DNA of 57,866 nt, filler included, from Stramenopiles sp. TOSAG23-3 (lineage: Eukaryota): the NCBI GenBank assembly GCA_900128585.1. It is 6 parts of 6 records of this genome, joined end to end, with 100 filler letters (N's around TTAATTAATTAA, not from the genome) between each part and the next. Parts side by side here need not be neighbours in the genome. Positions count along the whole stretch, not along the records: positions 1 to 17,265 come from LT642455.1; 5 more parts are not named here. One strand, given 5' to 3'. The translations under genes were made by a program, and so were the position numbers. Shown here one piece after another: positions 1 through 26,739 of the stretch (its first letter is position 1; the number at the start of each line of letters is the position of its first letter). The notes under the pieces were generated by a model. That model ran no database searches. It was not told the origin of the DNA and was given only the letters and a program-made list of their open reading frames with translations.

Positions 1-1
1 G

Positions 2-3000
2 GCAAAGTTTTTAAGGGGATCAAATACGTACCAGACCTGGAAACAGTACGTACCGTGCCAGTACGACGAGTGGTGCACAGAGACGAACGGTTTCGATTGC
101 TTGCAAGAGGAGCGCAACACGACCCTGCTAATGGTGGACGCGGGCCCTGGGTTTCGCAATAAAACGGGCCTCAAAGAGTACCCTGGCAGATGCTTCTTGA
201 TGGAGCTTCTTCCGGATGTTATCGTCCCGTTCCAGAAAGAAGACAATTACGGGGGGATGCAACCTCACTGGCGATACCCACCTGTGCGGACGTACGAGTG
301 GGACGGAAACAACGAGTGGAGCAGCCCCGGCAACACAGGGATCGACCGCCAGCTCGTGCTTGTGGAATACAGGGAAATTGTGCAAGGAACCTACGTTTGT
401 GCCAACAGCGGAAACTGTACCGTGCCGGACACGTGCGCTTGCAACAATTATGACTGGGGAGGGTTTGACTGCAGAATTCCCATGTGCCACCAAGGCTACT
501 TGGAACCGGATTTCCACAAAGTCAACCCGAGTGTAGCGATGGCGCCGCTGGTGCACCCGGACGGAACGGCGCTGTGGAAAGACAAATACCCAGGCCAAGA
601 CACGTACCAGTGTTCTATCAGGGCATACACGCCGTGGGAGAACCCAAATTACCTGCATCGCCACCCAAACTATTTTTCGCGCTACATGAGCATTACGAAA
701 GGGGAGGATGATTACATTCGCTACGCCACTGACCGCCACGTCTTTTTATGGCCCCCCGACAGTCTGTACGGGAGATCGTACAACATCAGCGAGGCCATTT
801 TTGACGATACGAGAAAGGGATGGCTGCGAATGGGAACATGGGAGCGTGTTGGGAACGAAAGCGTATGGCAAAAAGGCACGTGTACGATAGAGTACGATCG
901 CCAATGCGGTATCCCGGAGATCCAGTACGTCACCGTTTCCCTAAACGGTGGGATTGATCTGTCGGACACGACGGCAAAAAAGTTCTACAATAATGTTGGC
1001 GGATCGTTCGCGTTGGAGTTTGATGGGAGTTCCATCAGTGTCCTCGTTGCCGATGATGCGCTCACGCTGCGTCTAAAATTGGAGAGTGCCCTCAGTGTGG
1101 GGACCATTTATGTGACCAGGGACGATTTTAAAATTCTGCAGAGCGACTTTGCAAAAGGGACCTTCTGCGATTATCGGGACCCCACCCAGCCATGCGAGGA
1201 CACGCAATGCACGAAACGAAAAGTAAAATGTTACCCCCCGGAGATTTTACAAGGGTGCGATCGAAACACGGACTGTTACGGGCAACGGTGGAGAGTAACC
1301 TTCTACAACAACCGGGGGGACGTTCCGAAGATGCGCGTGAGCACGGGCGGACCCTTGCGCAGCCAGGATTACGCGTGCGATGGAGAGGCCGAAACGATTG
1401 ATATGGGACGCCCGTGCTCGCTAACGGGGGGGTATCAAGACGGTTACCCGCCCCGGTACCAGTACGGGGCGGCGACCGTCATGGTGACGACGAAGCAGGA
1501 AGGGGTCGCTTCTGCGCAAAAGGCCCGAGACGTGCGAACGTTGCAGACGGGCCGAAGCGTGCTGGACACTGACATGGTGTTTCGACCGAGGGTGTCGCAC
1601 ACGAACCAGTTCACCAGCGCGGTAGGACGCTGGACGGAAGAGGGTGGAAAGTGCGTCGACATGGTGGTGCGCGGCTGCTTAAACAATGGGACGTGCGTGG
1701 CGCCGGGCCGCTGCCAGTGTGCGCCAGGCTGGGAAGGCAACAAGTGTGATATTCCCGTCTGCGAACAGACCTGCCTTAACGGTGGAAACTGCACGTTGCC
1801 GAACTTATGTACTTGTGAAAAGGGTTGGTCGGGCCACGACTGCGGGTATGCGCTTTGCGCCCAGGAATGCAACAATAACGGCAAATGCGTTGAGCCGGAC
1901 ATTTGCAAATGCCCAAAGTGGCCGTCCCTGTGGGTGGATGGGCGCATTGGGGGCGGTCGCCCGCTCTTTCGTGACGAGAATGGAAACCCGCAGAACACAG
2001 GCTGGACAGGGTTCGACTGTTCGACCCCTGTATGCACGCAAGCCGAGGCGTGGACGCCATTGACCCTTGCGGGCGCCGTGCGTCTTGGGGGCGACGGGTA
2101 TGTTATATACGGGGATGACCCGAACAATAACCTGATGGGCCAAATGCCTGCATATTTGCAAGAGCAACGGGCGAACGATCGGTTGAAAGTCGGCCCGTTC
2201 CTTCGACCGTACGAGGTTGTCCCAGAACAGTTGGATGAACTGTCGTGGTACCGGCGGTGGGTGCCTGCGGACGGCCAAATTGTCAGGAACGACGGCAAAA
2301 GCTTCCAAAGCGGTTGCACGATAATATCCCCCATCCCAGCAAAATACCTCACCCCGCAAATGCGCCGGCAATACCCTCGGGTCGATGCGTTTCGGAACCC
2401 CTTGGGCCCTGGGAGTGGGATAGGGCACCAGTACCGGGTCGGCCACTACGTCCTGGGGTGGGCGTCTGCCACCGAGCAGAACGATACGGAATGGAGGCGA
2501 ACGTCTGACACGAAATTATGCAACGTGTTGGCGTGGGAAGAGGGGGACTACATTGAGCAGAATTTGAACCAGCCCACGTACGAGGAAGATGGGCGGCGCA
2601 TTCGATCCAACTACCCCAACTACATCAAGCAGACGGCAGAGCTGTGGATCAAGGGCCCCGTCGTTCGGGGGGAAGGCCTCTACCGTTGCTACAACCGAGG
2701 CAGCTGCGTTTCCCCGGACCTTTGCTCCTGCGCCGATGGGTGGACGGATGCCGATTGCAAGACTGCCCTGTGCCGTTACGAGCAACGGGATATTTTTGTC
2801 TCCCGCCTCCAGGTCGTCGGGTGCCTGAACGCAGGGTCTTGTTTGCGAAAGGACTATTGCAGCTGCGTGAAGACGGACAGTATTTTGCAAACGATTCACA
2901 CCGCCATTGAGCGCTTTCCTGAATTCCCCCCCTTCGTCAAAGAAACGGGTTTCATGGGTACCGATTGCTCTATACCAATGTGCGTGCAGGGGTACTGGGA

Positions 3001-3949
3001 CCAAACGTGTCGTGGCGTCACCCCTGGGGGGGAAGGTTGTTACCGGTGCAAAAATGGTGGGAACTGCACGGCGCCTGATTTCTGCACCTGCACGCCTGAC
3101 TGGACGGGGTTCGATTGCTCCATTCCTGTTTGCGTTGCCATCGCAGACACGGAAACCATATACGAGCTTCAGACGGTGGACGTGGGGCGGGTGCAAGACT
3201 TTGAATTGGACCCTTGCATCGAGCGCGAAGAGCGAAAGCTCGTCAACGCCCCGAAGCTGTATGATCCTCGTACGAACAAAGGCGACAAACATTTCGAACG
3301 GTTGAACTGGAGGGAGGGACAAGACTACATGATGAGCCGGGGGAACTGTACCAGGCCAATGTCATGCACCTGCTTGTGCTACGAGCAAAACCCCGAGTGG
3401 GATCCATGGCAGGACCCGCTGGAGCGGGGCCTTTCCGCGGGCTTTATTCTGGGCACCAGCGGAGAAGCCACCGGTGCCGGGGACGTAGACGACGTCAACT
3501 GCGCCTATGGGTTCGAGGGAAACAAGCGCGTGATCCCCGTCGAGGAGGACCCCGCGCGCGCTGGGGACGAGGTCTTTATGACCTGCCACTTTACGATCAA
3601 AGTCCCGGAGTGGTACGAGGAGTACTCCATCACATTGATTGTTTTTGGGACCCTGTTTGCCATCGGGGCGAGCATCGGCTATTACTACTACCGGCAGTGG
3701 CTGCAGCGAGTCTGGATGCGGAAGAAGGCAGAAAAGCGAAGGAGTCGGAAAAGTTCAGAGAGTAGTATCGGGAACATTGGCGGCGGCGGCGGCCGCAGCA
3801 GCAGTCGCGTCGTTGGCAGCAAGCGTACGAAGAGTAGCGGAAAGGTTACTAAAAGCGGGCGAAGCTCGGACGTGGGCGGGAAAAAGAAGAAGAAAAAGAA
3901 GAAGAAGAAGAAGGACAAAAAGAAAAAGAAATCCAAATCAAGAGTTTGA
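2..3949 (+). CDS. Large multi-EGF-like-repeat type I membrane protein (5'-truncated at window/contig start)
   Basis: Frame is open from position 2. Many EGF-like Cys repeats (e.g. CLNGGNCTLPNLCTCEKGWSGHDC, CKNGGNCTAPDFCTCTPDWTGFDC). Single C-terminal TM helix (SITLIVFGTLFAIGASIGYYYY) followed by a Lys-rich cytosolic tail. Confidence 0.85.
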   Translation, partial: AKFLRGSNTYQTWKQYVPCQYDEWCTETNGFDCLQEERNTTLLMVDAGPGFRNKTGLKEYPGRCFLMELLPDVIVPFQKEDNYGGMQPHWRYPPVRTYEWDGNNEWSSPGNTGIDRQLVLVEYREIVQGTYVCANSGNCTVPDTCACNNYDWGGFDCRIPMCHQGYLEPDFHKVNPSVAMAPLVHPDGTALWKDKYPGQDTYQCSIRAYTPWENPNYLHRHPNYFSRYMSITKGEDDYIRYATDRHVFLWPPDSLYGRSYNISEAIFDDTRKGWLRMGTWERVGNESVWQKGTCTIEYDRQCGIPEIQYVTVSLNGGIDLSDTTAKKFYNNVGGSFALEFDGSSISVLVADDALTLRLKLESALSVGTIYVTRDDFKILQSDFAKGTFCDYRDPTQPCEDTQCTKRKVKCYPPEILQGCDRNTDCYGQRWRVTFYNNRGDVPKMRVSTGGPLRSQDYACDGEAETIDMGRPCSLTGGYQDGYPPRYQYGAATVMVTTKQEGVASAQKARDVRTLQTGRSVLDTDMVFRPRVSHTNQFTSAVGRWTEEGGKCVDMVVRGCLNNGTCVAPGRCQCAPGWEGNKCDIPVCEQTCLNGGNCTLPNLCTCEKGWSGHDCGYALCAQECNNNGKCVEPDICKCPKWPSLWVDGRIGGGRPLFRDENGNPQNTGWTGFDCSTPVCTQAEAWTPLTLAGAVRLGGDGYVIYGDDPNNNLMGQMPAYLQEQRANDRLKVGPFLRPYEVVPEQLDELSWYRRWVPADGQIVRNDGKSFQSGCTIISPIPAKYLTPQMRRQYPRVDAFRNPLGPGSGIGHQYRVGHYVLGWASATEQNDTEWRRTSDTKLCNVLAWEEGDYIEQNLNQPTYEEDGRRIRSNYPNYIKQTAELWIKGPVVRGEGLYRCYNRGSCVSPDLCSCADGWTDADCKTALCRYEQRDIFVSRLQVVGCLNAGSCLRKDYCSCVKTDSILQTIHTAIERFPEFPPFVKETGFMGTDCSIPMCVQGYWDQTCRGVTPGGEGCYRCKNGGNCTAPDFCTCTPDWTGFDCSIPVCVAIADTETIYELQTVDVGRVQDFELDPCIEREERKLVNAPKLYDPRTNKGDKHFERLNWREGQDYMMSRGNCTRPMSCTCLCYEQNPEWDPWQDPLERGLSAGFILGTSGEATGAGDVDDVNCAYGFEGNKRVIPVEEDPARAGDEVFMTCHFTIKVPEWYEEYSITLIVFGTLFAIGASIGYYYYRQWLQRVWMRKKAEKRRSRKSSESSIGNIGGGGGRSSSRVVGSKRTKSSGKVTKSGRSSDVGGKKKKKKKKKKKDKKKKKSKSRV

Positions 3950-4374
3950 ATCTTATAATCACTACCCCCATCCGATTAATCATGTCAACCAATTAGGAAT
4001 GGGCAACATGGTTTCAGCTTCAGCTCACTTCATTGAAACGAGTTAATTAAACATATATTATATACAATACCATTTTTTTATCAGAGAGAGAGAAGAGAGA
4101 GGTTATTACTATACTCTTCTCTCTATTGGTTAATAATAGGGTTTCGTCGATTTGAAATAATAATATATTTTTTCGGAATTTTTCACCATTAAATCAACAA
4201 TTTTCAGAAAGACGTAGACTTTCCACAAAATGAAATGAATTGAAACGAAAGCAGAGTAAAAACGAGGGGGAGCGGAACGTATACCGAACTTCAAAACTAA
4301 ACGTTCTGTCAATTTCTTTGCCGTCGAATTCGCCCGATTGTTTTCTCTTTCTTCGGTGGTGGGCGTGCAACAAT

Positions 4375-5766
4375 ATGAACCGGTTCTTGGTGTTTCAGGC
4401 ATGTCGCCGGTTGCAAGGCGGTGCGTTTGGTTCCGTTCGAACGGTTTCTGGGGGCGTCTTTCGTGGGGCCCTTCCCCGTTCGAACTTACCTGTTGGCATC
4501 GTGAAATCGACTGTCGGTGGGCGAGTGTTTCAGACGAATGTGGGGATTTTGCGCGGGACAGCGTACGCAAATTCCTTACGGCATGCCCGGAGTACCATCC
4601 GGCCAAAGTCGTCCGCGGGCACCGCCATGGCTGCCGCCGGGGGGGCAGTCCCGTCGGTGTCCCGCGCGATTCCCCAGGACAAACTCTTGGCCTCCTGGAT
4701 ACTCGCGACTGGCGGCATGGTCTTTGGAATGGTAACGCTGGGAGGGGCAACTCGTTTGACCCGGTCCGGGCTCTCGATGGTGGACTGGAAGCCCCAAGGG
4801 AGGCCGCTGCCGTCCACGACGGAGGAGTGGGAGTTTGAGTTTGAAAAATACAAGGCCTTCCCGGAGTACCAAAAGTTGAACCAGAACATGACGCTGGGGG
4901 AATTCAAACGAATCTATTTTATGGAATGGGCGCACAGGATGTGGGGCCGGGCAATAGGCCTGGTCTTTGCCGTGCCTTTGCTCGGGTTTGCGGCCGCCAA
5001 GCGAATCCCGAAGCAACTGTACGGCCGGCTGGCGCTGCTGTTTGCGATGGGCGGGGGCCAAGGGTTGGTGGGGTGGTGGATGGTGAAGAGCGGCTTGACG
5101 CACGAACATCTGCCAGGGATATCGCGGAGCGAGCACGACACCCCTCGGGTGAGCCCGTACCGGCTGACGGCTCACCTCTCGATGGCGTTCGCGACGTACG
5201 GTGTGCTGATGTGGACCGGGATGAACTTGCTCACGGGCCCCCCGCGCGTGAAGAGCGGGGCCTTCAACTTGTCGGTCGCAAACTCGGCGTTGAAAGCGCT
5301 TCGGTCGCGGTCGAAAGGGGGCGCAGCGCTGCTTGGGCTGACGGTGTTGTCGGGCGCATTCGTGGCGGGGAACGACGCGGGGCACGCGTACAACGATTTT
5401 CCGTACATGGCGGGGGAGATCATCCCCGAACAGATCTGGATGGACCACCTTGGGCTTCGAAACTTGTTTGAGAACACGGCCACCGTCCAGTTCGACCATC
5501 GGGTCCTGGCGTTCACAACCCTCGGCACGGTCGGGGGGTTGTTTTTGTCCGCCCGTGGGAACTCGTTGGTGTGGAACAGTCTGAACCCGGACGCAAAGCT
5601 TGCATTGACCTCCCTGGTTGGCGTGACGACGGCCCAGGTTGGGCTTGGCATCACGACGTTGATGATGTACGTCCCGGTAGAGTTGGGAGTCGCGCACCAA
5701 GGGGGTGCATTGACCCTGTGGACGGTCGCACTTTGGCTGGTCCACACGCTGCGGTACGTGAAGTAA
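4375..5766 (+). CDS. COX15: Heme A synthase (cytochrome c oxidase assembly protein COX15), mitochondrial
   Basis: Motifs LGGATRLTRSGLSMVDWKP, FMEWAHRMWGR, GWWMVKSGL, RVSPYRLTAHL, GAFVAGNDAG, ENTATVQFDHR, VAHQ. ATG at 4375 gives an Arg/Ser-rich transit-peptide-like N-terminus. Confidence 0.95.
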   Translation: MNRFLVFQACRRLQGGAFGSVRTVSGGVFRGALPRSNLPVGIVKSTVGGRVFQTNVGILRGTAYANSLRHARSTIRPKSSAGTAMAAAGGAVPSVSRAIPQDKLLASWILATGGMVFGMVTLGGATRLTRSGLSMVDWKPQGRPLPSTTEEWEFEFEKYKAFPEYQKLNQNMTLGEFKRIYFMEWAHRMWGRAIGLVFAVPLLGFAAAKRIPKQLYGRLALLFAMGGGQGLVGWWMVKSGLTHEHLPGISRSEHDTPRVSPYRLTAHLSMAFATYGVLMWTGMNLLTGPPRVKSGAFNLSVANSALKALRSRSKGGAALLGLTVLSGAFVAGNDAGHAYNDFPYMAGEIIPEQIWMDHLGLRNLFENTATVQFDHRVLAFTTLGTVGGLFLSARGNSLVWNSLNPDAKLALTSLVGVTTAQVGLGITTLMMYVPVELGVAHQGGALTLWTVALWLVHTLRYVK

Positions 5767-5874
5767 GTGACGAAGTACGAACCAACTATATTTTTCTAGA
5801 AACACACACTCTAATAAAAAAAGCTACTGAGTTACAGAAATACGTTCATGCATAGAAAGGAACCCCACTCTGCA

Positions 5875-7425
5875 CTACACGACCATTTCTTCCACCGCGG
5901 CGGCCGCCTGACCCTTCGCCCCCGTGCGCCCGCCCCCGAACGCTTCTTTCTTGGAGCTCTCCTCTTGTTGAAACTGCATGTCGATGCTCTCTTCGATGCC
6001 GTCGATCTGGTCCTCCATGCCGTCCAGGTGCTCCTCGACTTGCTGCTGCTGCTCCAATAGCAACATTTCGTAGTCCCATGTCGAAAAATGCTTCGTGTGG
6101 ACCGCAAACATAATGAGCTCGCTGATGAGGACGCAGAAGACTGCCACCAGAATAAGGAAAAACGAATCGTACAGCGCGGCAAAATCGACGCAGTACCCAT
6201 GGATCATGTCGAACTGCTCGTTGTAGTACTTGACCTGCGCGTGGCTCTCGTCGATGGTCGAGTTCAAGACCGCAACGATGGACCGGCCCTTGTCGAGCTC
6301 TTCCTGCGGGTCGAACGCGGTCCCCAAGGCTCTCCCCCGCCCTGCGTGAGCGTCTGCGACGGCGGTCACCGGGAGCCAACGGAGCAGGTATCGCGCGTGG
6401 TCGCTCACCGACGGGATCGGCAACTCGGGAAGCGGGTTGCTGGCGGGGGCGCCTTCCCCGTCCCCGACCTTGGGCCGGCTGGCCATCTCGGCAACCTGGC
6501 CGATCCCGCTGTTTTCAAACTGGGCCTGGAGGTCGACCCATTTCTGATACTGAGCAAGGACGCTTCGCATGGTGCTGTCCGCGCCCCCGAGGGCCGCCTT
6601 GGCGAGCGCGATGTACTCCTCCACCTTTTCTATGTACGTTTTGACCAAGTTCCGAAAGAGGCCGCAGGTGTGGGCAAGGGTAAAGGACAGGCCGGTGGAG
6701 ACGGTGGTCACAAGGAAGAGCAAGAGGCCGACGACGTACGAGACGAAGAGGAAGACGGTCCCAAAAATGGCCCAGGCGAGCTGGCAGCCCTCCTGGCACG
6801 CCCACTCGACCGCCACGCACGTCTTGTGGCACCGGTCGGACTTTGCGCAGCACGTGAAGCAGCGGCACCGGCAACACTCGCGGGCACCCCGGCACTGTAG
6901 CTCGCGCTGCGTCTGGAGGACTCCGATGACGACGCCGTGGACGAAGACCGCGACGTGAACGAGGACAAACGCGAGCGCTATGAAGACTACTTGAAACACG
7001 TACATGTTGATCTGCGAGGTGTCCCCGTACTTGTAAGTGATGTCCCGGACGTTCAGCACAGCGGTCGACGACACGGCAAAGGCAACAAGGGTGAGGCCAA
7101 GGCCAAGCGACGCGCCCAACGGCCAGTTGTCCAGTCCAAAGCACCACTTGGCGACTTGAAACGCCCGTTTCGTGAGACGTTTTACCCCTCGCAACTTTCG
7201 GAGCCCTTCCATAGCCCTCGTCAAGTTTTTCTTCGTTCGCGAATAGACTCTTCCTCGACCTCCACCTGACCCTGAACCCAACCGCACCGAAAGGGAGACG
7301 GGTGGCATCGTCGGGGCCACCGCCGCACTACGGCTCGTTGATTTCTGCATCTCCCGGTGCACCCCATTCTCGTTGTCCGTGCTTGGACCAAGGTGGTTTC
7401 GTTCGGACTGTACGATTGCTGCCAT
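5875..7425 (-). CDS. Four-TM membrane protein with Cys-rich loop and acidic coiled-coil tail; resembles the M6/proteolipid (PLP) family layout
   Basis: 516-aa ORF with four hydrophobic segments, a CCRCRCFTCC cluster between TM2 and TM3 and a large loop between TM3 and TM4. Family assignment is tentative. Confidence 0.7.
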   Translation of the reverse strand: MAAIVQSERNHLGPSTDNENGVHREMQKSTSRSAAVAPTMPPVSLSVRLGSGSGGGRGRVYSRTKKNLTRAMEGLRKLRGVKRLTKRAFQVAKWCFGLDNWPLGASLGLGLTLVAFAVSSTAVLNVRDITYKYGDTSQINMYVFQVVFIALAFVLVHVAVFVHGVVIGVLQTQRELQCRGARECCRCRCFTCCAKSDRCHKTCVAVEWACQEGCQLAWAIFGTVFLFVSYVVGLLLFLVTTVSTGLSFTLAHTCGLFRNLVKTYIEKVEEYIALAKAALGGADSTMRSVLAQYQKWVDLQAQFENSGIGQVAEMASRPKVGDGEGAPASNPLPELPIPSVSDHARYLLRWLPVTAVADAHAGRGRALGTAFDPQEELDKGRSIVAVLNSTIDESHAQVKYYNEQFDMIHGYCVDFAALYDSFFLILVAVFCVLISELIMFAVHTKHFSTWDYEMLLLEQQQQVEEHLDGMEDQIDGIEESIDMQFQQEESSKKEAFGGGRTGAKGQAAAAVEEMVV

Positions 7426-8989
7426 TTGTTTGGTAAAGATCGTTCATAAATACTTGCTTGCATTCAAACCCTTTCCTTTTCCTTTGGTTTTCACTCTTCA
7501 ATCTTTCACAGCTCATCTTGATTCTTGATAATTCCAGTAGTATTCCAATAATAATAATAAGTCCTTATTATTAGAAAGAAAGAAAGAAAGAAAGAGAAGA
7601 AAGAAAGAAAGAAGAATTAAAAGAAGAATTCAGTTTTTAAAGAAGAAATCAGCGTTTTTAAGTTATTTAACATTGAATAGTATGACGTAAAACAATTCAT
7701 ACTATAAATATATACTTATAATGTATTTCTATTCCTATCTAAAACGTTTTGAATCACATAGGAAAACAAAAGAAACGAATACGAATGGTTGTACTTTTAT
7801 TCATGAAATTCATAGTAATACTTCAAACTACCCTTAGGGTTTTATTCATTCATTAATAACATCCTATTTTATTGTGAAACACAAATTATCTTATCCTCAT
7901 TTTAATTAAGTATAATTTTACCAAATACAAACTTTTAATATATTAATTCTTTTATTATTATAAACATACAATAATAACAAACTTAAATCAACACGTGTCC
8001 CTCACTTGTTTCCTATCAACATTTGAAAACAAATACTACATTCTACCGTATTCTAACAGACCCAATCGAAGAAAGTTCTTTTTTCTTCTTCCTGCTATTC
8101 CTATGTACACTTTGAAAACTCTCAGCCTCTACTACAACATCCATTCATACACCACAGAGCGTAACCAATCCAACGATCCAACACCATCCTTCAAATCCCT
8201 TTCTTGATTCATTTTTTTTCTTCGTCGCTACAACACATTCAATAACATATACACAGCATCTATATTTGACCTTCATTTACACCATCATTGTATCAAACCT
8301 TCTTTGAATCTTCTTTTCCTTCGTCTTTCATTTCAATGCTGTATTCATACTATTTCCTTCTTTCAATTTGTTTTTCCACTTTTTTTCCAACATTTTCGTA
8401 CTTTTTTGAAAACTTTGAACTAAAAACCAAAGATCGTTTCGATGCTATGTATATGTAGTGAACTAAAAAATGCAATCGATCATTTCCTTCCTTCCTCGAT
8501 TTGTTCCTAAATTTCTTCTTTTTACCACAAGAAGAATTCTTCCGATTCCAATGCTATGCGCCTGTTAAATTTATCATTTGTCGTAGAAATTTCGCGAAGA
8601 AAGAAGAAGAAAGGTCACTCACTCACGCACGGAAGAAAGAAAAGGAAAGGCCCTTTACCCTTGACAGAAACTGAAAAGAATCGATAGAAATGGGGGAAGG
8701 AATGAAAAAGAAACGAGCAAACAAACAAACAAAAACTAAACTGAACGAACGTATTCAAATTGTACGTACAATTTCTTCAAACGCTTTAAACGTTTCACGA
8801 CACCAAACGCCAGAACACCGACCAGTCGGATTTCTTGCTTTTCCCACTTTACCGCATCCACGAACTTGCCCACGCACTCCACGTCAAGCGACAACCGAAC
8901 GAAAGGGACAGCGCAGCGCCTTTTTTGAACCGAACCCTTCTCTTCGTCTAGTCGTCGAACCGAGGATTAATTGTGCCCGCGTACGTTAT

Positions 8990-10459
8990 ATGGATCACCC
9001 CGGAACCACCGCACACACCCATCACCAGACTGCTGTACGCTCAAACACTCCGAACAAACAAAGCTTGCATCGAGGAACGGCGAACAGTTACCAGGAGACT
9101 CCCTCGCAGAAGGCCGTCTTCCGAAGCGCAAACTCGCTGGCATCGTCGCTCAAGGCATTCCTGTCGAACTGCTTCACGAGCGCAACCGTGGAACCACGAA
9201 CGAACGCCCCGGGTGCCATGCAGCTTGACTTTAGCAACCTGCGCCACAACAAGGCGCTCGCAAAGAGCGCCCCGTGCTCCCCAAAGGTGAACGCCCGCCG
9301 GTCGAAGTTTCCGGCCGCCGCCTCGTCGTCGGCATCCTCGAAGCACGCCGTCACGGGGAACGGGAACACCGTCGCCGTCGGCCCGTCCGCCCGACGGCTC
9401 CTCCGCCGATCGAACCACCCCGTTCTCAACGGGTTCGTCCTTGAGAAGAGCCTTCAGAACGGGTACAGCGGAAAGGTGTACCGCGGCCACGAGGCGGCCA
9501 CCCAGCGCAAGGTCGTCGTCAAGTGCTGCCGAAAGCTGTCGAGCTGGACGACCGAGACCCGGGCATTGGGAAAGCTGAAGCACGAGAACATCATCAACAT
9601 GGTCGGCGCCCCCCAGGCGAACGTTCCGTGCCCCCCGAGCATCAAAATGGGCCAAGGGAAGAACTCCCAGATGCCCGACGAGAACGGGACTGTCCCGTCG
9701 ATCCACGTCCTCGCCCAAGAGCTTGCCGAGAACGGGGACCTGTACGAGTTCCTTCAGACGAACGGCCCCGTCGACGAGCCGACGGCCCGGGCGCTCATCA
9801 AGCCCCTCGTCAAGGCCCTGGCGTACGCGTACCACCGCCACGGGGTCTCCCACAGGGACATTAAGTTAGAGAACATTTTCGTCATGAAAGACGGTACCGT
9901 GAAGCTCGGCGACTGGGGCCTTGCGGCCTTCGAGACGAAGGACCGCCAGTGCTCCAGCTCGTGCGGGACCCTCGGGTACATGGCCCCGGAAATGGTCTGC
10001 CGCCACAAGTACGACGCGAACAAGACCGACGTCTGGGCCCTTGCCGTGGTCCTCTTTAGTCTGTGCACGGGCGTGCGCCCGTACGCTGAGCCGGAGCACC
10101 GGCAGCGGTCCCCGAAGGATTTTTCCTGGAAGGACGAGTGGCTTTCGGCGATGATGGAGAACCGGTGGAAGGTGTGGTGGTTGAGCCACGCGCGGACCAC
10201 CAAGTGCATCTCCCGGGTGTCGCCCGAGCTGCGCGACATGATAGAGCGAATGTTCGACGCGGACAGCGACGGGCGGATCTCGCTCCGGGAGCTTCTCCAC
10301 CACCCGTGGATGTGCAAGGACGGGCAAGGTGCGGACAACGAGTCGGACGTCGAGAGTTTCTCCGACTCGGACTCGATGATGGACATCGACATGGGCTGCG
10401 GTGCCATCGAACGTGTAGTCACCAAGGCGGACATCGCCCGGTTCTGCCGAAAGTATTGA
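8990..10459 (+). CDS. Ser/Thr protein kinase (CAMK-like)
   Basis: NGYSGKVY glycine loop, VVVK, HRDIKLEN, DWG, GTLGYMAPE, DVWALAV. Start is uncertain: the ORF is open from 8690, and ATG 8990 was chosen where coding-like composition begins. Confidence 0.9.
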   Translation: MDHPGTTAHTHHQTAVRSNTPNKQSLHRGTANSYQETPSQKAVFRSANSLASSLKAFLSNCFTSATVEPRTNAPGAMQLDFSNLRHNKALAKSAPCSPKVNARRSKFPAAASSSASSKHAVTGNGNTVAVGPSARRLLRRSNHPVLNGFVLEKSLQNGYSGKVYRGHEAATQRKVVVKCCRKLSSWTTETRALGKLKHENIINMVGAPQANVPCPPSIKMGQGKNSQMPDENGTVPSIHVLAQELAENGDLYEFLQTNGPVDEPTARALIKPLVKALAYAYHRHGVSHRDIKLENIFVMKDGTVKLGDWGLAAFETKDRQCSSSCGTLGYMAPEMVCRHKYDANKTDVWALAVVLFSLCTGVRPYAEPEHRQRSPKDFSWKDEWLSAMMENRWKVWWLSHARTTKCISRVSPELRDMIERMFDADSDGRISLRELLHHPWMCKDGQGADNESDVESFSDSDSMMDIDMGCGAIERVVTKADIARFCRKY

Positions 10460-11122
10460 CCGACCGACGCGCACAAAACGGTAGGTTGGACCTATGCTGT
10501 TGTTCTCGGTTCCCCGTACGCCCGCGTACTTGTACAGGTTTCAAACGAAACAAAACCGGACCGATTGGACTGAAGCGCGATGTAATTAATGCCTCCCCCC
10601 ATTGTACAGACGGGCGGGCGGGCGAAGGAAACAAAGAGATGCTTGGATGCATTTGTAAATTATTAAAAACTAAACGAGAAAGAGCGAGGGAAGCAACCCC
10701 ACGCACGCACGGGGAGACAACTTCGTGGAACGTGCGTGGGTCTTGCGCACATTATTGTATGCACATACATGTACATTTTATACATATTATTTTTTTGTAC
10801 GCAATCTTAACATATTTAGGAGAGGGAGAGGAACAATTTAGAACGAGAGAGACAAACAAAACACTTGTTTTCACAATTTTTAACGCGCCCGTTTCCTGGA
10901 TGATACGCGTCCTTGATTTACGATCTGACATGTCGCAACATAACATAATTTATCTGGACGCGTTTGGTCTTGTTCTCGTTTGGTCTCCACCCATGATGCT
11001 CAAATTACCCCTGCCTGGCCCACACCCACTAGCCCGCCGACGCGTTGGCCTCTCTCTCGAATCCCGACTGTACACTGTAAACGATCCTCGCAGCGCGTGC
11101 CCTCCCCGCCCAACTCCGGCAT

Positions 11123-13780
11123 TCAGTTCCATTTTCGAAACACCGGCTTGCAGGCGTCCCCTACGAGGAGGCCGTCGGTGTTCCCCTGGTCCAACGCCTG
11201 CTTGTACACCACGAGGCTCTCCTCGTACGCTTTCAGAAAGTACGCGACGTCCTCCATCGACGTCTGGTAGCAGGCGAGGAAGATGCCCTGGAAAAGGACG
11301 CCCCGCTTGATCATCTCCTGGATGAACAGGGTGCGAAGGGGGCTGTTGGCCTTCCCGTCGTTCCCTTTGAAAATGGAGACGTTCACCCAGGTGTTCGACT
11401 TGATGACTATTTGCTCCTCGAGCCCGGCCGTTTGGACGAGCGCCCGGACCCCCGCGGAGCAGGCCTCGACGAGCCCGTGCACGTGGCCGATGACGTCGTT
11501 CTCCCGGTAGGTCTTGATGACTTCGAGGGCGGCGGCGAGGCCGTGGGCCTCCGCCCCGTGCGTCGTGGAGCAGAGGAAGAGCCTCGGGTACTCCTTCCCG
11601 TCCCGGTCGCGGTGCTGCTTGATCCCCCCGATGTCCATGATCTCGGCCCGCCCGGTGAGGGCGCAGAAGGACATCCCGTTCCCGATGGACTTTCCCCAGC
11701 AGCACATGTCGGCCTCGTGCCCGTACACGGTGTAGGCCCCGGGGAACCCGGCCCGGTACCCGCTGACCATCTCGTCGACGATGTAGACGATCCCGTGCTC
11801 CCGGCAGATGTCCCCGATCTCCCGGTGCGCCCGGGCGACGGCTTCCCGGTCGTACGCGCAGCAGTCCGCGATGGAGTCGGGCTCCGTGATCAGGCCGGCG
11901 ATCTGGTCCGGGTACTGCCGGACGAGCTCCCGGAGGGAGTCCGGGTTCATGCTGTCAAAGGTGAGGGTGAGGGCCTTGACCTCGTCCGGGATCCCAAAGT
12001 CGCACGGGGTGGTCGCGATGAACCAGTCGTCGTAGCTGTAGAACGGGTGGTTCTTCGGGCGGCAGACGTACTTCCGGCCCGTGAACCCCCGGGCGAGCTT
12101 CATCGCGGCGGTGGTGACGGTGGACCCGTTCTTGGCCATCTTGATCCGGTCGTGGCCGGGGACCTGCGCGAGGAATTCCTTCGCCAGGACGCGCTCGAGG
12201 CTGGCCGGGCGCTGGTAGTTGGCCCCGAGGTGGAGCTGCTTCACGACGGCGTTGATCACGGGTTTGAACCCATGCCCAAGGCTGACGGAGGTCAGGCCGA
12301 GGGAGCAGTCGAGGAACTTGTTCCCGTCCAAATCGAAGACGTAGGCCCCGTCCCCGCGCTCGATGGCGGCCGGGGACAGGAGGGGCCACTGGTCGTCCCC
12401 TTTCGAGTACGTGTGGGCCCCGCCCGGGATGAGCTGGTGGATCTCCGCCCGGTACGCGTCGGACTTCTCGAAGTTCGTGCAGCGGCGAAGGGTGACGCCG
12501 CCGCGGGCCGGCACGGGCTGGCGGCGCCCCGTCGCCGTGAAGGCGTTCTGGACCTTTGCCACGGCGGCGATCGCGTCGTCGACGTCCCCGTCCGTCATGA
12601 GGGGGAAGCAGGGGAGGCTGACGATCTCCTTGTACAGGGCGTTGGCCTCCGGGCAATGGGCCTCGATCGGGGAGTAGGCCCCGTCGAAATTGTTCTGGTA
12701 GTACGCGTGCGCGTGGACGGGGAGGTAGTGGACGTTCACCCCGATCCGCTCCTTCCGCAGCGCGGTGAAGAAGGTGTCCCGGTCGCAGGTCAGGTTCTCC
12801 AGGCGCAGGCGGACGACGTAGAGGTGGTGGGCGTTCACCGTGACCCCGGGGATGTCCCGGACGGGGACGAGGGTGTCGAACCCCGCGAAGGCGGCGGTGT
12901 ACCGGGCGCATATCTCGTTCCGGCGCGCGATGAACTGGTCGAGGCGCGTCATCTGCTGGATCCCGAGGGCGCACTGGATGTCCGTGATCCGCAGGTTGTA
13001 CCCGAGCGCGACCATGTCGTAGCGGTGCGAGGCCTGGGCCTCCCGGTCCTTGTAGGACCGGTCGATCCCGTGGGTCCGGAACATGCTCGCCCGGGCGAAG
13101 AACCCGGCGTCGTTCGTGCAGACCATCCCGCCCTCCCCGGTCGTGATGTTCTTGACCGGGTGAAAGCTAAGGGTGGTGATGTCCGCGATGTTCCCGACCT
13201 TCCGGCCCTTGTAGGAGGCCCCGATCGCGTGGGAGGCGTCCTCGATGAGGACGAGGCCGTGCCGCCGGGCGATGGCGAGGAGCGGGTCGAGGTCGACCGG
13301 CTGGCCGCACATGTCGACGGCGATGATGGCCTTGGTCTTCGGGGTGACGAGGGCCTCGACCTTGGCGACGTCGACGTTCATCGTCTCCCGGTCGACGTCC
13401 GCGAAGACGACCGTCCCGCCCTCGTACAGGACGGCGTTCGAGGACGCGACGAAGGTAATGTCCGACACGATGACCTCGTCCCCCGGGCCTATCCCGGCCG
13501 CGAAGACCGCCGCATGGAGGGCGCACGTTCCGTTCGCGACCGCCACCGCGTGCGCGGCCCCCGTGTACTCGCAGACGGCGTCCTCGAACGCCTTCACCCT
13601 CGGCCCTGTGGTCAGGTACGGCTCCTGAAGGCACTCCACGACCGCCTTGATGTCGTCCGCGTTGATCGTCTGCTTCCCGTACGGAAGGGTGGAGGACCGG
13701 ACCGGGTCCCCGCCGTGCATCGCAAGGAGGGAGGCGGGGGGTGGGGTGGTGCTACCATTGGGTGTCGTCAAGGAGGCCAT
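11123..13780 (-). CDS. Fusion: PseC-like DegT/DnrJ sugar aminotransferase (N-terminal) + class-III PLP aminotransferase of the glutamate-1-semialdehyde aminomutase-like subfamily (C-terminal)
   Basis: N-half: LPYGKQTI, YLTTGP, IEDASHAIG, SFHPVKNITTGEGG (PLP Lys at 13151-13153), GYNLRITDIQCALG, VHYLPVH. C-half (about 11123-12487): IPGGAHTYSKGDDQ, DLDGNKFLD, KNGS, HPFYSYDDWF, DEMVSGYR, WGKSIGNG (PLP Lys at 11690-11692), STTHGAE, KPVFRK. Confidence 0.92.
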   Translation of the reverse strand: MASLTTPNGSTTPPPASLLAMHGGDPVRSSTLPYGKQTINADDIKAVVECLQEPYLTTGPRVKAFEDAVCEYTGAAHAVAVANGTCALHAAVFAAGIGPGDEVIVSDITFVASSNAVLYEGGTVVFADVDRETMNVDVAKVEALVTPKTKAIIAVDMCGQPVDLDPLLAIARRHGLVLIEDASHAIGASYKGRKVGNIADITTLSFHPVKNITTGEGGMVCTNDAGFFARASMFRTHGIDRSYKDREAQASHRYDMVALGYNLRITDIQCALGIQQMTRLDQFIARRNEICARYTAAFAGFDTLVPVRDIPGVTVNAHHLYVVRLRLENLTCDRDTFFTALRKERIGVNVHYLPVHAHAYYQNNFDGAYSPIEAHCPEANALYKEIVSLPCFPLMTDGDVDDAIAAVAKVQNAFTATGRRQPVPARGGVTLRRCTNFEKSDAYRAEIHQLIPGGAHTYSKGDDQWPLLSPAAIERGDGAYVFDLDGNKFLDCSLGLTSVSLGHGFKPVINAVVKQLHLGANYQRPASLERVLAKEFLAQVPGHDRIKMAKNGSTVTTAAMKLARGFTGRKYVCRPKNHPFYSYDDWFIATTPCDFGIPDEVKALTLTFDSMNPDSLRELVRQYPDQIAGLITEPDSIADCCAYDREAVARAHREIGDICREHGIVYIVDEMVSGYRAGFPGAYTVYGHEADMCCWGKSIGNGMSFCALTGRAEIMDIGGIKQHRDRDGKEYPRLFLCSTTHGAEAHGLAAALEVIKTYRENDVIGHVHGLVEACSAGVRALVQTAGLEEQIVIKSNTWVNVSIFKGNDGKANSPLRTLFIQEMIKRGVLFQGIFLACYQTSMEDVAYFLKAYEESLVVYKQALDQGNTDGLLVGDACKPVFRKWN

Positions 13781-13939
13781 GATGGTGATGCGGATGATGC
13801 CGAGTCAAAATTCAATTCAAAGCAAAGCAGACGAAGGAGGAAGGGAAGGAAGGAAGGAAGGAAAGAAAGGGGGGAATTTTGCTCTGGTCGGTCGGAGGGC
13901 GAACAAACTTTGAAGGCTCGACGGCACAAACAATCAGAA

Positions 13940-13959
13940 ACACACACACACACACACAC
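13940..13959. repeat. (CA)n microsatellite
   Basis: acacacacacacacacacac upstream of the PseC-like gene. Confidence 0.9.
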
Positions 13960-14322
13960 GTAAATGAGAATGCAATGCGAATCAAATCAAAAAAACGTTA
14001 TGGATCCCTATTTTTAAAAAAGAAAAGGAACTTTCCTTTCTTCTCCAATACCGAAGACGAAGACAGACATACTTCAGACCAAAACTTTCCCAAAATTTCA
14101 AATTTTCCAATTCAATTAAAATATTTAAACTTTCTTCAATAAATGAAATTAAACACATAGGAATATTGTACTTGTATTATCCCTTAGACATACACAAAAT
14201 GAACGTTTTTCGAGGAAACACTTTCATAAATTCATATTGTCTACCCTTTACAAGTACAATATTAAACGTAGATTTCATAGGTCATTTATATCATACATCA
14301 AAGAAGATATAAATTCCATTTC

Positions 14323-14523
14323 TCATTGATAGGAAAGTTTGTACTAAAATCAACTAAGTAAAGAAACAATAACTATTAACTACACTACCCTCTATCAAAT
14401 AGTATATCATAATTAGAAAAACAGCAGAAAACAAAAAACTTATACATAATTATAGCATATAACGAAGATATTTATACACGTTACTTTTTTATGTATATTT
14501 AGTACAATCTTTCCTATCAATGA
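14323..14523. repeat. 26-bp inverted repeat (25/26 identical) bounding 149 bp; MITE-like
   Basis: TCATTGATAGGAAAGTTTGTACTAAA (14323-14348) versus TTTAGTACAATCTTTCCTATCAATGA (14498-14523). Confidence 0.75.
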
Positions 14524-15231
14524 TAATAGGAATTGAGAACCAACCAATCAAATTAAAATATTCATACCTCTCACAGCATCAACAATGTATCCCTATTATC
14601 TATACCTTTTTTATATCTCATTACACTATCATTAAAATGAATACAACTACAACTACTTCCCCATTCTTCCCCTTATTCCTATGCTAACCGAACGAATACA
14701 ATGCTGTATCTATGCTAATGATCATACATTCCTATCAAACACATAGTCTAAGAATTATACAAGTATATTTATACCGAATTGAACTATTTGTATACGTTGT
14801 GATAGGAAGATGTGTACTAAAGTTACAAATATAAAAACGGATAAAAATATCTTGTGTTAATGCTATTGTGATCTATAATCGTTTTGCTTTCTGCTATTTA
14901 TCCAATGATTGTATACTAACAAATAGGAAACATTGTACTAAACGGATGTTCAAACTTTACTTCAATTTTTTTTTGGCAATTTGTTTTCCAAAAATTATTC
15001 CAAATTCCTTATTTCCCAATTGGATTGAAACATTGAAACATTGAAACGGTGCACAAAAAAAGGTTCGTTCAAAAATCTATTCCGATTTTCTCAACACGTT
15101 TGTCTTTCTTGCATCGTTGCGGCCTTGTGGTTCCGTTCGTTCTGTCGCTCTCTTCGTTGCTTGATTTGCGTTTCCCCCCTTCCTTCCTTCTCTCTCTCTC
15201 TCTCTCTCTCTCTCCCCCCCTTCGTTTTCCC

Positions 15232-17184
15232 ATGGCAGGGGTAGCGTCGGACGGTGTGCTGCCGGGGTCCTCGGATATTTACCGGTACCTTCGGGCACGG
15301 GAACCGGCGGAACTCCCGGACGCGTCGGATTACATCGAAACGGTGGCCAAGCAGCGGCCGTTCGTCGTTGGGCTCGTTCAGGCCCGTATGGGAAGCACGA
15401 GGCTCCCTGGAAAAGTCCTCCTTCCCCTCCCAAAGGAGGGCGGCATGCCCGTCCTGTGGCACGACTTTCAGCGCCTGAAAGCGTGCAAGAACGTCGACCA
15501 GTGGGTCCTTGCGACGTCGACGTGGCACACGGACACCGTCCTGGAGGAGTTCTGCACGGAGCACGGGATTGCATGCTTTCGGGGGAGCGAGTCGGACTGC
15601 CTCGAACGGCTGTTCACCGGGGCCGTCGCGCACGGGGCAAAGGAGGGGGACTACGTCCTTCGGATCACCAGCGACTGCCCGCTCATCGACGCCGGCCTCG
15701 TCGACCGGGCCGTCGAGGAGGCCGTCGCGGGGGGCTACGACCAGTACGGGCTCTGGGACCAGGTCCCACGGTCCACGCGGTACGCGGACGGCCTCGACTG
15801 CCAAGTCTTCAGCTTCACCGGGATGGAACGAATGAACCGGGAGGCCAAGGAGCCCCACGAACGGGAGCACGTCGGGCCCTTCATGATGGACCACCCCGAC
15901 CGGTTCCGCCTCGGCCACTTGGACTTTCCGTACGCGAAAGGGAAGAACCGGAACTGGACCCTCGACAACCCGAGGGACTACGACTTCCTCTCCGAGGTCT
16001 ACCAGCGCCTGTGGCGGGGGAAAGACGCCGCGCCCTTCAGCATCGACGACCTGATCGCCCTGCTCGACCGGGAGCCCGCCCTCTCCGACATCAACCACAC
16101 CCCCGCCGAGCTCCAGAACGAAGGCCTCTTCAAGTCCTTCCGGAGCAAGATCAAGGCCCACGGGGGGGGCGACTACCACGCCCGCCGCCTCACGAACTTT
16201 GCGAAAAGCTCGCAGCTCCGGGGAACGCGCGCCCACGTTCCCGTCCAGCCCGTGCTCGCCCGCGGGGACGGGGCCTTCGTCTACGACGTCGACGGGAACG
16301 AGTACATCGACGTCGCCATGCGCGGCGGGGCCGTCGCCTTCGGCCACCTCTACGACTTTCGGGAGGCCAAGGCCCAGGGCCCGCTGACCCCGGCGGCCGC
16401 CAGCGCCCCGGGGGAGGCCCCCGGGGCGGCCACGATCGAGGCCACCGCCGCGCTCCGCCGGCTCTTCGCGAAGCCCCACGTCTTTTACGCGAGCTCCCTT
16501 GCCGGGGCCCGCCGCGTCGTGGCCGGCCTCGCTGGGGACCGCGCCGTGCTCGAGCGCATCGACGACCTCGACCACGGCCTCGCTGCCCGCGCCCCCGCCG
16601 GGGCCGCCCGCGTGCTCTTCGAGGACCGGGCCGCCGGCCGGCTCGCCTTCCCCGCCGTCTCCAGCGTCCAGGGCATCGACTGCGACGCGATTGTCCTCGG
16701 GCCCACGTTCGCCAACGGCGAGACCTTTTTTCCCGTGCTCTGGAGGACCCGCGACGAGGGCATTCGCAGGGCGGCGGGCGACTGCGCGGAGTGGGACGGG
16801 GACCGCGCCTCCCCCCACGGCGTCAACCGGGCGGCCGCGGCCGTCCTCCGGGCGATCGAGTACCACCAGAAGCATTTTGTCGTCTTCAACCTTCACCGGT
16901 TCTACACCTCCCTGCGCTCTGGGTTGATCTCTGGGATCATGGGGAACGGCATGGAGGATAAAGTGGTGCTCCGGGAGGGCGGCGGCCGGATACAGATTGC
17001 CCTTGCCGAGGGTGCAGGGGACCCGCACGCCTTTGCCGAGACCATCTGGGCGGAAATGCTCGCCCGGGGGATCCACATCACGAAAGACCTCTACGTCACC
17101 CCGTGCTTTGCGTACGAAACGGAGATCATCGTTAGGATGACCCTCGCCTTCGACGCTGCCCTGGTCGTGTACAAGTTCAATTGA
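15232..17184 (+). CDS. Fusion: SpsF-type (COG1861) acylneuraminate-cytidylyltransferase-family domain + degenerate class-III aminotransferase-like domain
   Basis: LVQARMGSTRLPGKVL, FRGSESDCLER, RITSDCPLID, YADGLDCQVFSF, EREHVGPF, WTLDNPRDY, NEGLFKS. From 16183: RGDGAFVYDVDGNEYID and LGPTFANG (no catalytic Lys). ATG 15232 lies just after a (CT)n tract. Confidence 0.9.
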   Translation: MAGVASDGVLPGSSDIYRYLRAREPAELPDASDYIETVAKQRPFVVGLVQARMGSTRLPGKVLLPLPKEGGMPVLWHDFQRLKACKNVDQWVLATSTWHTDTVLEEFCTEHGIACFRGSESDCLERLFTGAVAHGAKEGDYVLRITSDCPLIDAGLVDRAVEEAVAGGYDQYGLWDQVPRSTRYADGLDCQVFSFTGMERMNREAKEPHEREHVGPFMMDHPDRFRLGHLDFPYAKGKNRNWTLDNPRDYDFLSEVYQRLWRGKDAAPFSIDDLIALLDREPALSDINHTPAELQNEGLFKSFRSKIKAHGGGDYHARRLTNFAKSSQLRGTRAHVPVQPVLARGDGAFVYDVDGNEYIDVAMRGGAVAFGHLYDFREAKAQGPLTPAAASAPGEAPGAATIEATAALRRLFAKPHVFYASSLAGARRVVAGLAGDRAVLERIDDLDHGLAARAPAGAARVLFEDRAAGRLAFPAVSSVQGIDCDAIVLGPTFANGETFFPVLWRTRDEGIRRAAGDCAEWDGDRASPHGVNRAAAAVLRAIEYHQKHFVVFNLHRFYTSLRSGLISGIMGNGMEDKVVLREGGGRIQIALAEGAGDPHAFAETIWAEMLARGIHITKDLYVTPCFAYETEIIVRMTLAFDAALVVYKFN

Positions 17185-17208
17185 GGAGGCGAGGGGGGGA
17201 GGGCAGAC

Positions 17209-17265
17209 AGAAGGAAGGAAGGAAGGAAGGAAGGAAGGAAGGAAGGAAGGAAGGAAGGAAGGAAG
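17209..17265. repeat. (GGAA)n microsatellite at contig end
   Basis: Perfect GGAA tandem array running into the N linker. Confidence 0.95.
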
Positions 17266-17365
17266 NNNNNNNNNNNNNNNNNNNNNNNNNNNNNNNNNNN
17301 NNNNNNNNNTTAATTAATTAANNNNNNNNNNNNNNNNNNNNNNNNNNNNNNNNNNNNNNNNNNNN
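17266..17365. other. Artificial contig linker N44-TTAATTAATTAA-N44
   Basis: 100-bp spacer carrying stops in all six frames; the same linker recurs five times in the window. Confidence 0.99.
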
Positions 17366-26180: not shown

Positions 26181-26739
26181 TCGAACCGCCGCCACACAGG
26201 CCGGCGTGCTGTTCAATACAATCTGCTGTAATCCGAGAATGTTCGGCCGTCTTCCAGCAGTTCACCTTTTGGGTCACCAAATCAACAAATATGTCGCTTG
26301 TTCCTTTTGGGGTTGACGTCAGCTCCAGAAGAAGTGTCGTGGTAAGTAATGGTTGGTGTGGATAATAAAATACTATTTTAGTCGTCTATGTATACGAGGA
26401 GAATAGACAATAATTTAAATGTGTAATCAGCAGCAGGCAGGGGTAGGTTGTTGAGGGAGGAAGGAGAGGGGGGCGGGGGGAGGACTGACTTTTTTTTATA
26501 TTATTATTAAAATAAATTCAAATTCATCAATCTTATCATCTTGAGTCCTAGGATATATAGAGACTCCACAAACTAAATATTTACGAAACAAACATGGTTT
26601 AGTCATTGTAAAAAATTGACAATGTCTGAACTATAGACATTTCTCTGTAACGAACAGATCATTTTATCGCCTTCGGAAGTAGTTCTGTACAAGAAAGTGG
26701 GTGCTTCCATTGTGTTAGGAAGTTGCGTAGTGTAGTTCG

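Follow-up and report, generated by a model that had tools for sequence, protein, structure and literature searches.

Introduction

In bacteria, the pathways leading to cytidine monophosphate (CMP)-activated pseudaminic and legionaminic acids combine a PseC-type aminotransferase with an SpsF-type cytidylyltransferase, and their gene clusters also carry an aldo-keto reductase and a class-III aminotransferase (excerpts of PMC7439481, PMC7591256, PMC7371886 and PMC3694923). In the same excerpts, enzymes of the SpsF/FlmC type stand at the CMP-activation step in the sps cluster of B. subtilis (PMC7439481) and in the flm cluster of Caulobacter (PMC7591256), and similar clusters are tabulated for Vibrionaceae (Vibrio) and Legionella (PMC7371886, PMC3694923); SpsF is not mentioned in the excerpt of PMC13317340. 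In this work we analysed a 57,866-nucleotide stretch of DNA (hereafter the window) from Stramenopiles sp. TOSAG23-3 (GenBank assembly GCA_900128585.1), in which a PseC-type and an SpsF-type enzyme are likewise found together, each fused to a class-III aminotransferase domain: gene A carries an active copy of this domain and gene B a copy predicted to be catalytically dead.

Dead paralogues of this kind have precedents. SPT1/SPT2 comprises a pyridoxal 5'-phosphate (PLP)-dependent fold-type-I paralogue without catalytic lysine next to an active one (excerpt of PMC6148460), as in the gene B/gene A pair, and the trypanosomatid prozymes of S-adenosylmethionine decarboxylase (AdoMetDC) and deoxyhypusine synthase are, as here, dead paralogues kept by selection in a protist lineage (excerpts of PMC5201418 and PMC3663545). 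Additionally, in fold-type-I transaminases an interfacial loop of the neighbouring subunit completes or closes the active site (excerpt of PMC6861513). A full-text literature search for class-III aminotransferase pseudoenzymes (subscription journals and supplements being outside its scope) found no paper, and a broader one found none on this family among the papers listed. No listed paper ties the marine stramenopile group MAST-4 to this bacterial surface-sugar pathway (the supplements of MAST genome papers may list the genes), and the literature searches returned no described reaction for the active class-III enzyme of bacterial pseudaminic-acid clusters.

Results

Loss of the catalytic residues

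Gene B and its main features are the following:

15232..17184, plus strand: gene B, 650 residues, SpsF-type cytidylyltransferase fused to a class-III domain predicted to be dead
15349..16137, plus strand: SpsF-type cytidylyltransferase domain (PF02348, 81.6 bits, above cut-off)
16183..17184, plus strand: predicted dead class-III aminotransferase domain, last 333 codons of the gene B open reading frame (ORF)
16486..16497, plus strand: YASS replacing the KNGS motif, with Tyr419 and Ser422 invariant among the dead orthologues
16702..16704, plus strand: Pro491 (CCC) at the catalytic lysine position, opposite Lys697 of gene A; Pro in 4/6 and Ser in 2/6 dead orthologues
16807..16821, plus strand: degenerate counterpart of the STTHG loop, without a common motif in 6 dead domains (mean pair identity 0.06)
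16879..16935, plus strand: residues 550-568, a helix of the small domain in the model, where conservation has been gained (at N553, R556, S563 and S567)

The region 16183-17184 is one intact open frame, and it aligns nearly full-length with the 454-residue class-III domain of gene A at 11123-12487 (BLASTP, 23% identity, E 2e-11), with a local alignment score of 139 against 51 for the best of 300 shuffles. An earlier note on this DNA had described this frame and its end-to-end match, quoting four motif pairs, all of which are present in the alignment; it had also remarked on the similar GC-rich codon usage, and the GC content at third codon positions is indeed 0.90 for the dead domain and 0.95 for the class-III domain of gene A. 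Its claim that the domain is catalytically dead is well borne out by the residues at the active site, and the domain belongs to the same class-III subfamily as its neighbour. The lysine is replaced by proline exactly where the note had placed it, and the PF00202 score of the domain (20.1 bits) falls under the Pfam gathering score of 30.5. The KNGS motif, reported as lost, is gone but was replaced rather than deleted: all six dead domains read Y-A/T-x-S at this position. In the Gly-Ser/Thr phosphate site, the serine (Ser422) is unchanged in the dead orthologues and the glycine is substituted in 6/6. The domain is 121 residues shorter than its counterpart (333 against 454), in agreement with the approximately 120 residues estimated before; measured from the end of SpsF, the length is 417-422 residues in four other clusters, 360 in one and 348 in gene B, and by this comparison the shortening is partly lineage-specific. 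The catalytic residues are lost, and from its sequence we regard the domain of gene B as a catalytically dead class-III fold.

A structural model of gene B, built from a 130-row alignment, has a mean predicted local distance difference test (pLDDT) score of 84 and a predicted template modelling (pTM) score of 0.82. Residues 319-650 of the model match the class-III structure 6ssd (Z 29.4, root mean square deviation 3.0, 316 residues aligned; the alignment behind the model included active homologues), and the SpsF domain matches the Leptospira cytidylyltransferase 6oew (Z 30.3, root mean square deviation 1.8, 237 residues). Matches in the ESM Atlas, at 0.91-0.92, were to generic class-III clusters alone.

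The residues that persist at the old cofactor site could be taken to mean that the domain is a ligand sensor, in which non-covalent binding of PLP, pyridoxamine phosphate, an amino sugar or a CMP-sugar would tune the fused cytidylyltransferase. The invariant Ser422 fits this view, as does the pyridine-binding aspartate, retained in 4/6 dead domains, and the pTM of the model suggests that the domains of gene B are fixed relative to each other. We nevertheless consider a sensor very unlikely: the aspartate that pairs with the pyridine nitrogen is Phe463 in gene B itself and Asn in the orthologue P0186, the segments of the substrate pocket are lost (pair identities of 0.14 for the N-terminal arm and 0.12 for the YSYDDW region), and the conservation gained by the domain lies outside the old pocket.

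Retention of the dead domain in the lineage

With the dead domain as query, a full HMMER search returned 19 proteins, including three clear orthologues (P0186, P0187 and P0188), to which a profile search and cluster look-ups added P0210, P0211, P0352 and P0353. A word-indexed search of proteins, run with this domain on its own, recovered just the cluster to which it belongs (1 of 8000 candidates), no recognisable orthologue was present among the best 80 of 278 loci in a metagenome scan with a 3-row alignment (best identity 30-59%), and a viral collection gave no match to gene B and one weak PseC-like locus.

The catalytic lysine is present in none of six dead-domain orthologues, against 7/7 orthologues of gene A, and the frame is open to the C-terminal helix in all six sampled dead domains. 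Compared with its orthologues, the dead domain shows 32-39% identity (31-39% once the comparisons of P0186 are counted), the SpsF half of the same proteins 77-81% and the active domain 63-74%; in terms of path length, dead domains are separated by 3.7-4.7 substitutions per site and active orthologues by about 0.5-0.6, so that the rate of the dead domain is roughly 6-9 times that of the active copy. Given that the lysine is lost in 6/6 orthologues and that the frame has remained open across several substitutions per site, the dead state is old and common to the lineage, and the domain is retained in it. The earlier note had set free loss of the domain (neutral decay), or orthologues that keep the lysine, as the outcomes that would speak against it; the lysine is kept in none of the six dead domains, and their frames remain open.

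These rates invite the alternative that the domain is a relic, decaying slowly and kept only through its in-frame fusion to an essential cytidylyltransferase, with selection asking no more than that it folds and does no harm. The path lengths favour this alternative, together with the large deletions and the composition drift in this species, the largely structural nature of the conserved parts, and two clusters (P0213 and P0214) that end after SpsF. On the other hand, a single stop codon could shed a C-terminal relic, yet 6/6 domains reach the C-terminal helix, and four residues of one helix are invariant only within the dead clade (see below). The short forms, for their part, have the features that an intron would leave. 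A tail of five residues is common to two divergent members (two bases on, it reads as conserved HDLIL-type coding sequence), and one ends at a donor-like G-K-stop, with P0186 starting just downstream; based on these features, P0213 and P0214 are probably introns read through by a prokaryotic gene caller. Altogether, we regard the relic as unlikely.

Regional conservation and the dimer interface

Gene A, the neighbour of gene B, has these features:

11123..13780, minus strand: gene A, 885 residues, fusion of a PseC-type sugar aminotransferase with an active class-III one
12488..13780, minus strand: N-terminal PseC/DegT domain with intact lysine motif (TIGR03588, 436 bits, cut-off 423.5; PF01041)
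11123..12487, minus strand: C-terminal class-III aminotransferase, PRK06209-like, 454 residues (NF004856, 461 bits, cut-off 486; PF00202 above cut-off)
11690..11692, minus strand: catalytic Lys697, unchanged in 7/7 orthologues
11555..11569, minus strand: STTHG interfacial loop, unchanged in 7/7 orthologues

Lys210 of the PseC domain is likewise unchanged in 7/7 gene-A orthologues. In the alignment with a class-III domain of solved structure, the STTHG loop falls on the xGT loop, and we take its threonine to bind the PLP phosphate of the partner subunit. From this alignment and the interfacial loop described in the excerpt of PMC6861513, STTHG would be the part lent to the PLP site of the partner. 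Gene A retains both the catalytic and the donated residues, the pattern expected of a self-sufficient homodimer, and most likely its class-III copy stayed active and homodimerises.

Mean pair identities were calculated region by region for three sets (dead domains, 5 sequences; gene-A domains, 5; bacterial domains, 11), and are given below in this order:

N-terminal strands and GH segment: 0.57, 0.73, 0.74
Asp strand to Lys loop: 0.48, 0.79, 0.71
N-terminal substrate arm: 0.14, 0.77, 0.64
YQRP region: 0.23, 0.69, 0.60
YSYDDW region: 0.12, 0.72, 0.57
STTHG loop: 0.06, 0.68, 0.59
C-terminal tail: 0.00, 0.65, 0.47

Conservation among the dead domains is patterned, with 0.48-0.57 in the core strands and the Lys-loop region against 0.00-0.23 in the segments that build the active site in cis and in trans. 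Of all internal segments, the counterpart of STTHG has degraded furthest (6% identity among orthologues).

This pattern bears directly on the model of the earlier note, in which the dead domain and the class-III domain of gene A pair through the normal interface into a heterodimer with a single site (SPT1/SPT2-like), tethering PseC and SpsF for channelling. Several observations agree with it. The two domains belong to the same subfamily, the dead-domain profile scoring 64-83 bits on 7 gene-A orthologues, and the genes are arranged head-to-head in this genome. The best conserved region of the dead domain (0.57) is the N-terminal strand with the GH segment, part of the usual class-III dimer contact. 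Moreover, SPT1, which has no lysine, pairs with SPT2 (excerpt of PMC6148460). However, a dead subunit that completes the site of its partner should keep the donated loop, and this is precisely what was lost: STTHG is invariant in 7/7 active orthologues and has no common motif in 6 dead domains, and the YQRP segment and the C-terminal tail went with it, while gene A retains what a homodimer would need. A complex prediction with residues 430-885 of gene A and 316-650 of gene B (7-row alignments) scored 0.00 twice, with the mark at 0.32; the controls were not folded, and the result speaks neither for nor against the pairing. As the donated segments are among the least conserved (STTHG 0.06 and YQRP 0.23, against 0.68 and 0.69 in the active copies), a canonical heterodimer seems distinctly unlikely. 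What survives of the earlier proposal is a scaffold role, plausible through a different surface and not through the active-site interface.

A dominant-negative regulator, which enters the canonical interface with gene A and, lacking the donated loop, switches the aminotransferase off, would also fit a domain that has lost this loop but kept the N-terminal GH segment. We find this hardly credible, since it leaves the conservation gained on helix 550-568 unexplained and since degradation extends to the long stretch of interface around YQRP.

A newly conserved helix

Helix 550-568 stands apart from the rest of the domain, with a conservation of 0.60 in the dead domains, 0.49 in gene A and 0.29 in bacteria. 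It is the top 19-column window for excess conservation (0.21, against 0.04 for the best elsewhere), and 0/5000 column shuffles reach this value. Only six positions are invariant among the dead domains while varying in gene A and in bacteria alike, and four of these (N553, R556, S563 and S567) are in this helix, spaced i, i+3, i+10 and i+14, which puts them on one face. In the bacterial homologues this face carries charged residues of various kinds. That small residues are invariant on a face that otherwise varies suggests a packing surface, and the helix is a candidate for a new binding surface.

Origin of the domain and of its fusion

Trees were calculated for the class-III domains with 56 rows and 447 columns (a quick tree, with long-branch warnings) and, more strictly trimmed, with 34 rows and 393 columns, from which 22 bacterial rows (including the long row P0217) had been dropped. 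In both, the dead domains form a single clade (support of 100 in the Shimodaira-Hasegawa-like approximate likelihood ratio test, SH-aLRT). In the first tree this clade lies near the root, with the long-branch warnings, and in the second gene A, the PRK06209-like fusions and this clade form one polytomy (SH-aLRT 99); both placements stand. In approximately unbiased (AU) tests, neither the grouping of the dead clade with gene A (0.485) nor that with the bacterial PRK06209-like fusions (0.517) was rejected, whereas its grouping with a second, 688-residue fusion type was (p-AU 0.02). When the clade was placed on each of 53 branches (LG+F+G4), the best position was as sister to gene A plus two bacterial proteins; a position as sister to the eukaryotic active clade gave p-AU 0.147, and one as sister to gene A of its own species alone gave p-AU 0.043. 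The dead-domain profile scores 49-94 bits on 108 PRK06209-like fusions and 21-56 on 42 second-type fusions.

These tests reject the dead domain as a recent copy of its neighbour, and the part of the earlier note that described a local duplicate is not supported in this respect, while an ancient duplication is allowed. The tree check the note had called for, between a sister of the neighbour and a relative of the bacterial SpsF-fused enzymes, leaves both groupings standing. An ancient duplication after transfer would be the simplest origin; two sources are also allowed.

Among the 120 matches listed for gene A, most are bacterial fusions of SpsF with a class-III domain, about 697 residues long and with 47-55% identity. 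The SpsF half of gene B, in turn, is nested among stand-alone bacterial SpsF proteins (SH-aLRT 98; these were sampled with a eukaryotic profile, which biases towards them), and a tree that unites it with the PRK06209-like fusions is rejected (p-AU 0.030). Because the SpsF half groups with stand-alone proteins and not with the fusions, the fusion in gene B may have arisen separately from the bacterial ones.

Other fusions within the same cassette were seen among the proteins compared. P0010 is a bacterial PseC/class-III fusion, distant from gene A in the trees, and for this reason probably of independent origin. P0011 is a dinoflagellate (Pfiesteria) protein in which PseC has an N-terminal extension, P0111 a dehydratase-PseC fusion and P0101 a GNAT/class-III fusion. 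The genome itself contains a further distant class-III aminotransferase (G000:C2340:2142-2468, L002) and a second DegT-family match (G000:C3609:1501-1977, L111).

Pathway context

Around active-domain relatives in 16 bacterial genome loci, a PseC-like ORF is present in 7 and an SpsF-like one in 6. A scan of 56 of 184 ORFs, from 8 loci (7 bacterial genome loci and one metagenome locus), gave matches above cut-off for PseC in 8/8, PseG in 6/8, PseI in 5/8 and PseB in 4/8; 5/8 loci had a hit to an aldo-keto reductase of the PRK14863 type. Three of the loci (L009, L010 and L012) have a divergent NeuB-like gene, under both cut-offs, adjoining spsF and the class-III gene; L010 and L012 additionally carry a canonical PseI.

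In the host, TIGR03588 (PseC) and PF02348 both have matches above cut-off, and gene B is the sole PF02348 match in the assembly. A PRK14863-type aldo-keto reductase is encoded at G000:C653:4817-5569 (L107:1339-2409, minus strand; 29% identity, E 1e-19) and probably belongs to the same transferred pathway. A PseG-like fragment on a 517-base contig (G000:C1741:1-517, L106) scores 27 bits, far below cut-off, with a weak pairwise match (E 0.14); read by eye, its frame resembles the end of PseG, possibly entering the start of an acetyltransferase, as in bacterial PseG-PseH fusions. The bacterial context of the cassette is clear, and the sequence comparisons indicate that genes A and B come from a cassette of the pseudaminic-acid type. 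Its product in the host, we would guess, is a pseudaminic-acid-like sugar with an extra amino step.

The host also has a 3-deoxy-D-manno-octulosonic acid (Kdo)-8-phosphate synthase (G000:C661:7271-8044, L109, above the TIGR01362 cut-off), and since gene B is the single CMP-sugar synthetase match, it might activate Kdo as well or instead. A reading in terms of a Kdo8N-like sugar made by KdnA was dropped, as the structure of the Kdo8N transaminase matches the PseC/DegT half of gene A and not its class-III half.

Gene order, transcription and host

The remaining features of the locus are:

1..17265: contig C52, carrying genes A and B, from a 28-Mb eukaryotic assembly of 7088 contigs
13781..15231: AT-rich spacer between the divergent genes (GC 0.275 at 14001-15000)

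The window is a chain of contigs with N spacers (identical 12-base spacers between runs of 44 N, at 17310, 34671, 51966, 53948 and 55930), and adjacency across these joins of unrelated contigs carries no meaning. Genes A and B are both on C52, head-to-head and 1.45 kb apart, and the stop of gene B is 81 bases short of the contig end. The spacer is a possible shared promoter of the two genes.

Single RNA-library contigs span the whole of gene B (15228-17192) and the whole of gene A (11006-13804), and some part of the dead domain is covered in 4/4 RNA runs; being assembled contigs, with DNA carry-over possible, they are compatible with transcription. RNA cover was absent over 13890-15019 in 4/4 runs, which proves nothing alone. 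The RNA contigs over gene B have 6 differences, 3 in each half, 2/3 of them non-synonymous in each, too few for use.

Contamination was rejected as an explanation, as C52 also codes for an epidermal growth factor (EGF)-repeat protein, COX15 and a protein kinase, and orthologues are present in EukProt. The EGF-repeat protein (2-3949, plus strand) is large and 5'-open; near its C-terminus it has a stretch of hydrophobic residues and a tail rich in Lys. EukProt entries with the label Stramenopile MAST-4 belong to one cluster of orthologues of gene A, and the host is therefore probably a MAST-4 relative. On different contigs, the window encodes a tetratricopeptide-repeat and GT41 protein, O-GlcNAc-transferase-like (23838-26216, minus strand), and a weak MazG-like match, perhaps two such domains (20334-21005, plus strand).

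Discussion

With modest confidence, we favour the reading that the dead domain of gene B is a non-catalytic interaction module acting through the new helix surface. In the scenario we propose, an ancestor of the marine stramenopile lineage studied here would have taken up a bacterial cassette of the pseudaminic-acid type, with PseC, an SpsF-type CMP-sugar synthetase and a class-III aminotransferase, the aldo-keto reductase and PseG probably arriving with it, and the class-III domain would have come to exist in two copies in the host lineage. The copy borne by PseC would have remained an active enzyme, most likely a homodimer, and the copy borne by SpsF would have lost its lysine and the loops that build its own and its partner's active site, keeping the fold and gaining a conserved outer helix. 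Through helix 550-568, and not through the canonical dimer interface, the domain could then pack on the cytidylyltransferase or oligomerise it, or dock another protein of the pathway. In a more specific form, which is possible but on the doubtful side, the pseudoenzyme would use this newly evolved helix to dock the enzyme of CMP activation either onto the PseC-aminotransferase fusion or onto a different enzyme of the pathway, in a complex that makes an amino-modified pseudaminic-acid-like cell-surface sugar, with the modification introduced, for example, by the reductase and the aminotransferase at one hydroxyl. The helix as a binding surface, what it binds and the product of the pathway are what we infer here from the patterns described above.

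Several points weigh against this reading. The helix test used 5 sequences, three of them related, and column shuffles ignore autocorrelation, which overstates its strength; surface exposure would follow from the helical spacing and the bacterial variability, and we identified no binding partner for the helix. The share of G, A, R and P in the dead domain of gene B (0.41, against 0.17-0.23 elsewhere) is a sign of relaxed selection, and P0213 and P0214 stop after SpsF in the protein collection. The alignment behind the gene B model is dominated by active homologues, and a model from a 3-row alignment is poor (pLDDT 42). Furthermore, PseB and PseI were not found with the queries used in this incomplete 28-Mb, 7088-contig assembly.

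If true, this more specific form would make the domain a class-III pseudoenzyme hub in abundant marine grazing protists, in which a bacterial nonulosonic-acid cassette was rebuilt as a eukaryotic complex, and it would open a route to the function of a widespread and unstudied bacterial reductase-SpsF-aminotransferase module. The two genes also point to a bacterial surface-sugar pathway fixed in a marine stramenopile lineage, and the two protist proteins offer a compact system for working out the reaction of the active class-III enzyme, whose module often occurs in the pseudaminic-acid clusters of bacteria.

SPT1 is a known example of a dead paralogue among PLP enzymes; here the domain loses both catalysis and its role in the partner site, and gains a conserved surface. 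In the excerpt of PMC6148460, SPT1 forms a shared active site with SPT2, a pair of the α-oxoamine synthase (AOS) family, whereas in gene B the donated loop has decayed, and genes A and B are of class III, with each copy fused to another enzyme. The trypanosomatid prozymes have other folds and are free subunits with shown allosteric activation (excerpts of PMC5201418 and PMC3663545), while the domain of gene B is fused. Unlike the bacterial CMP-pseudaminic and CMP-legionaminic clusters, the genes described here are in a eukaryotic host, where PseB and PseI were not found in the incomplete assembly, and they are rearranged into two fusions with one class-III copy dead. The closest likeness in architecture is to the bacterial SpsF/PRK06209-like fusions of about 697 residues (for example in Flavobacterium), which have the domain order and the class-III subfamily of gene B, but keep the lysine and all the loops that the domain of gene B does not.

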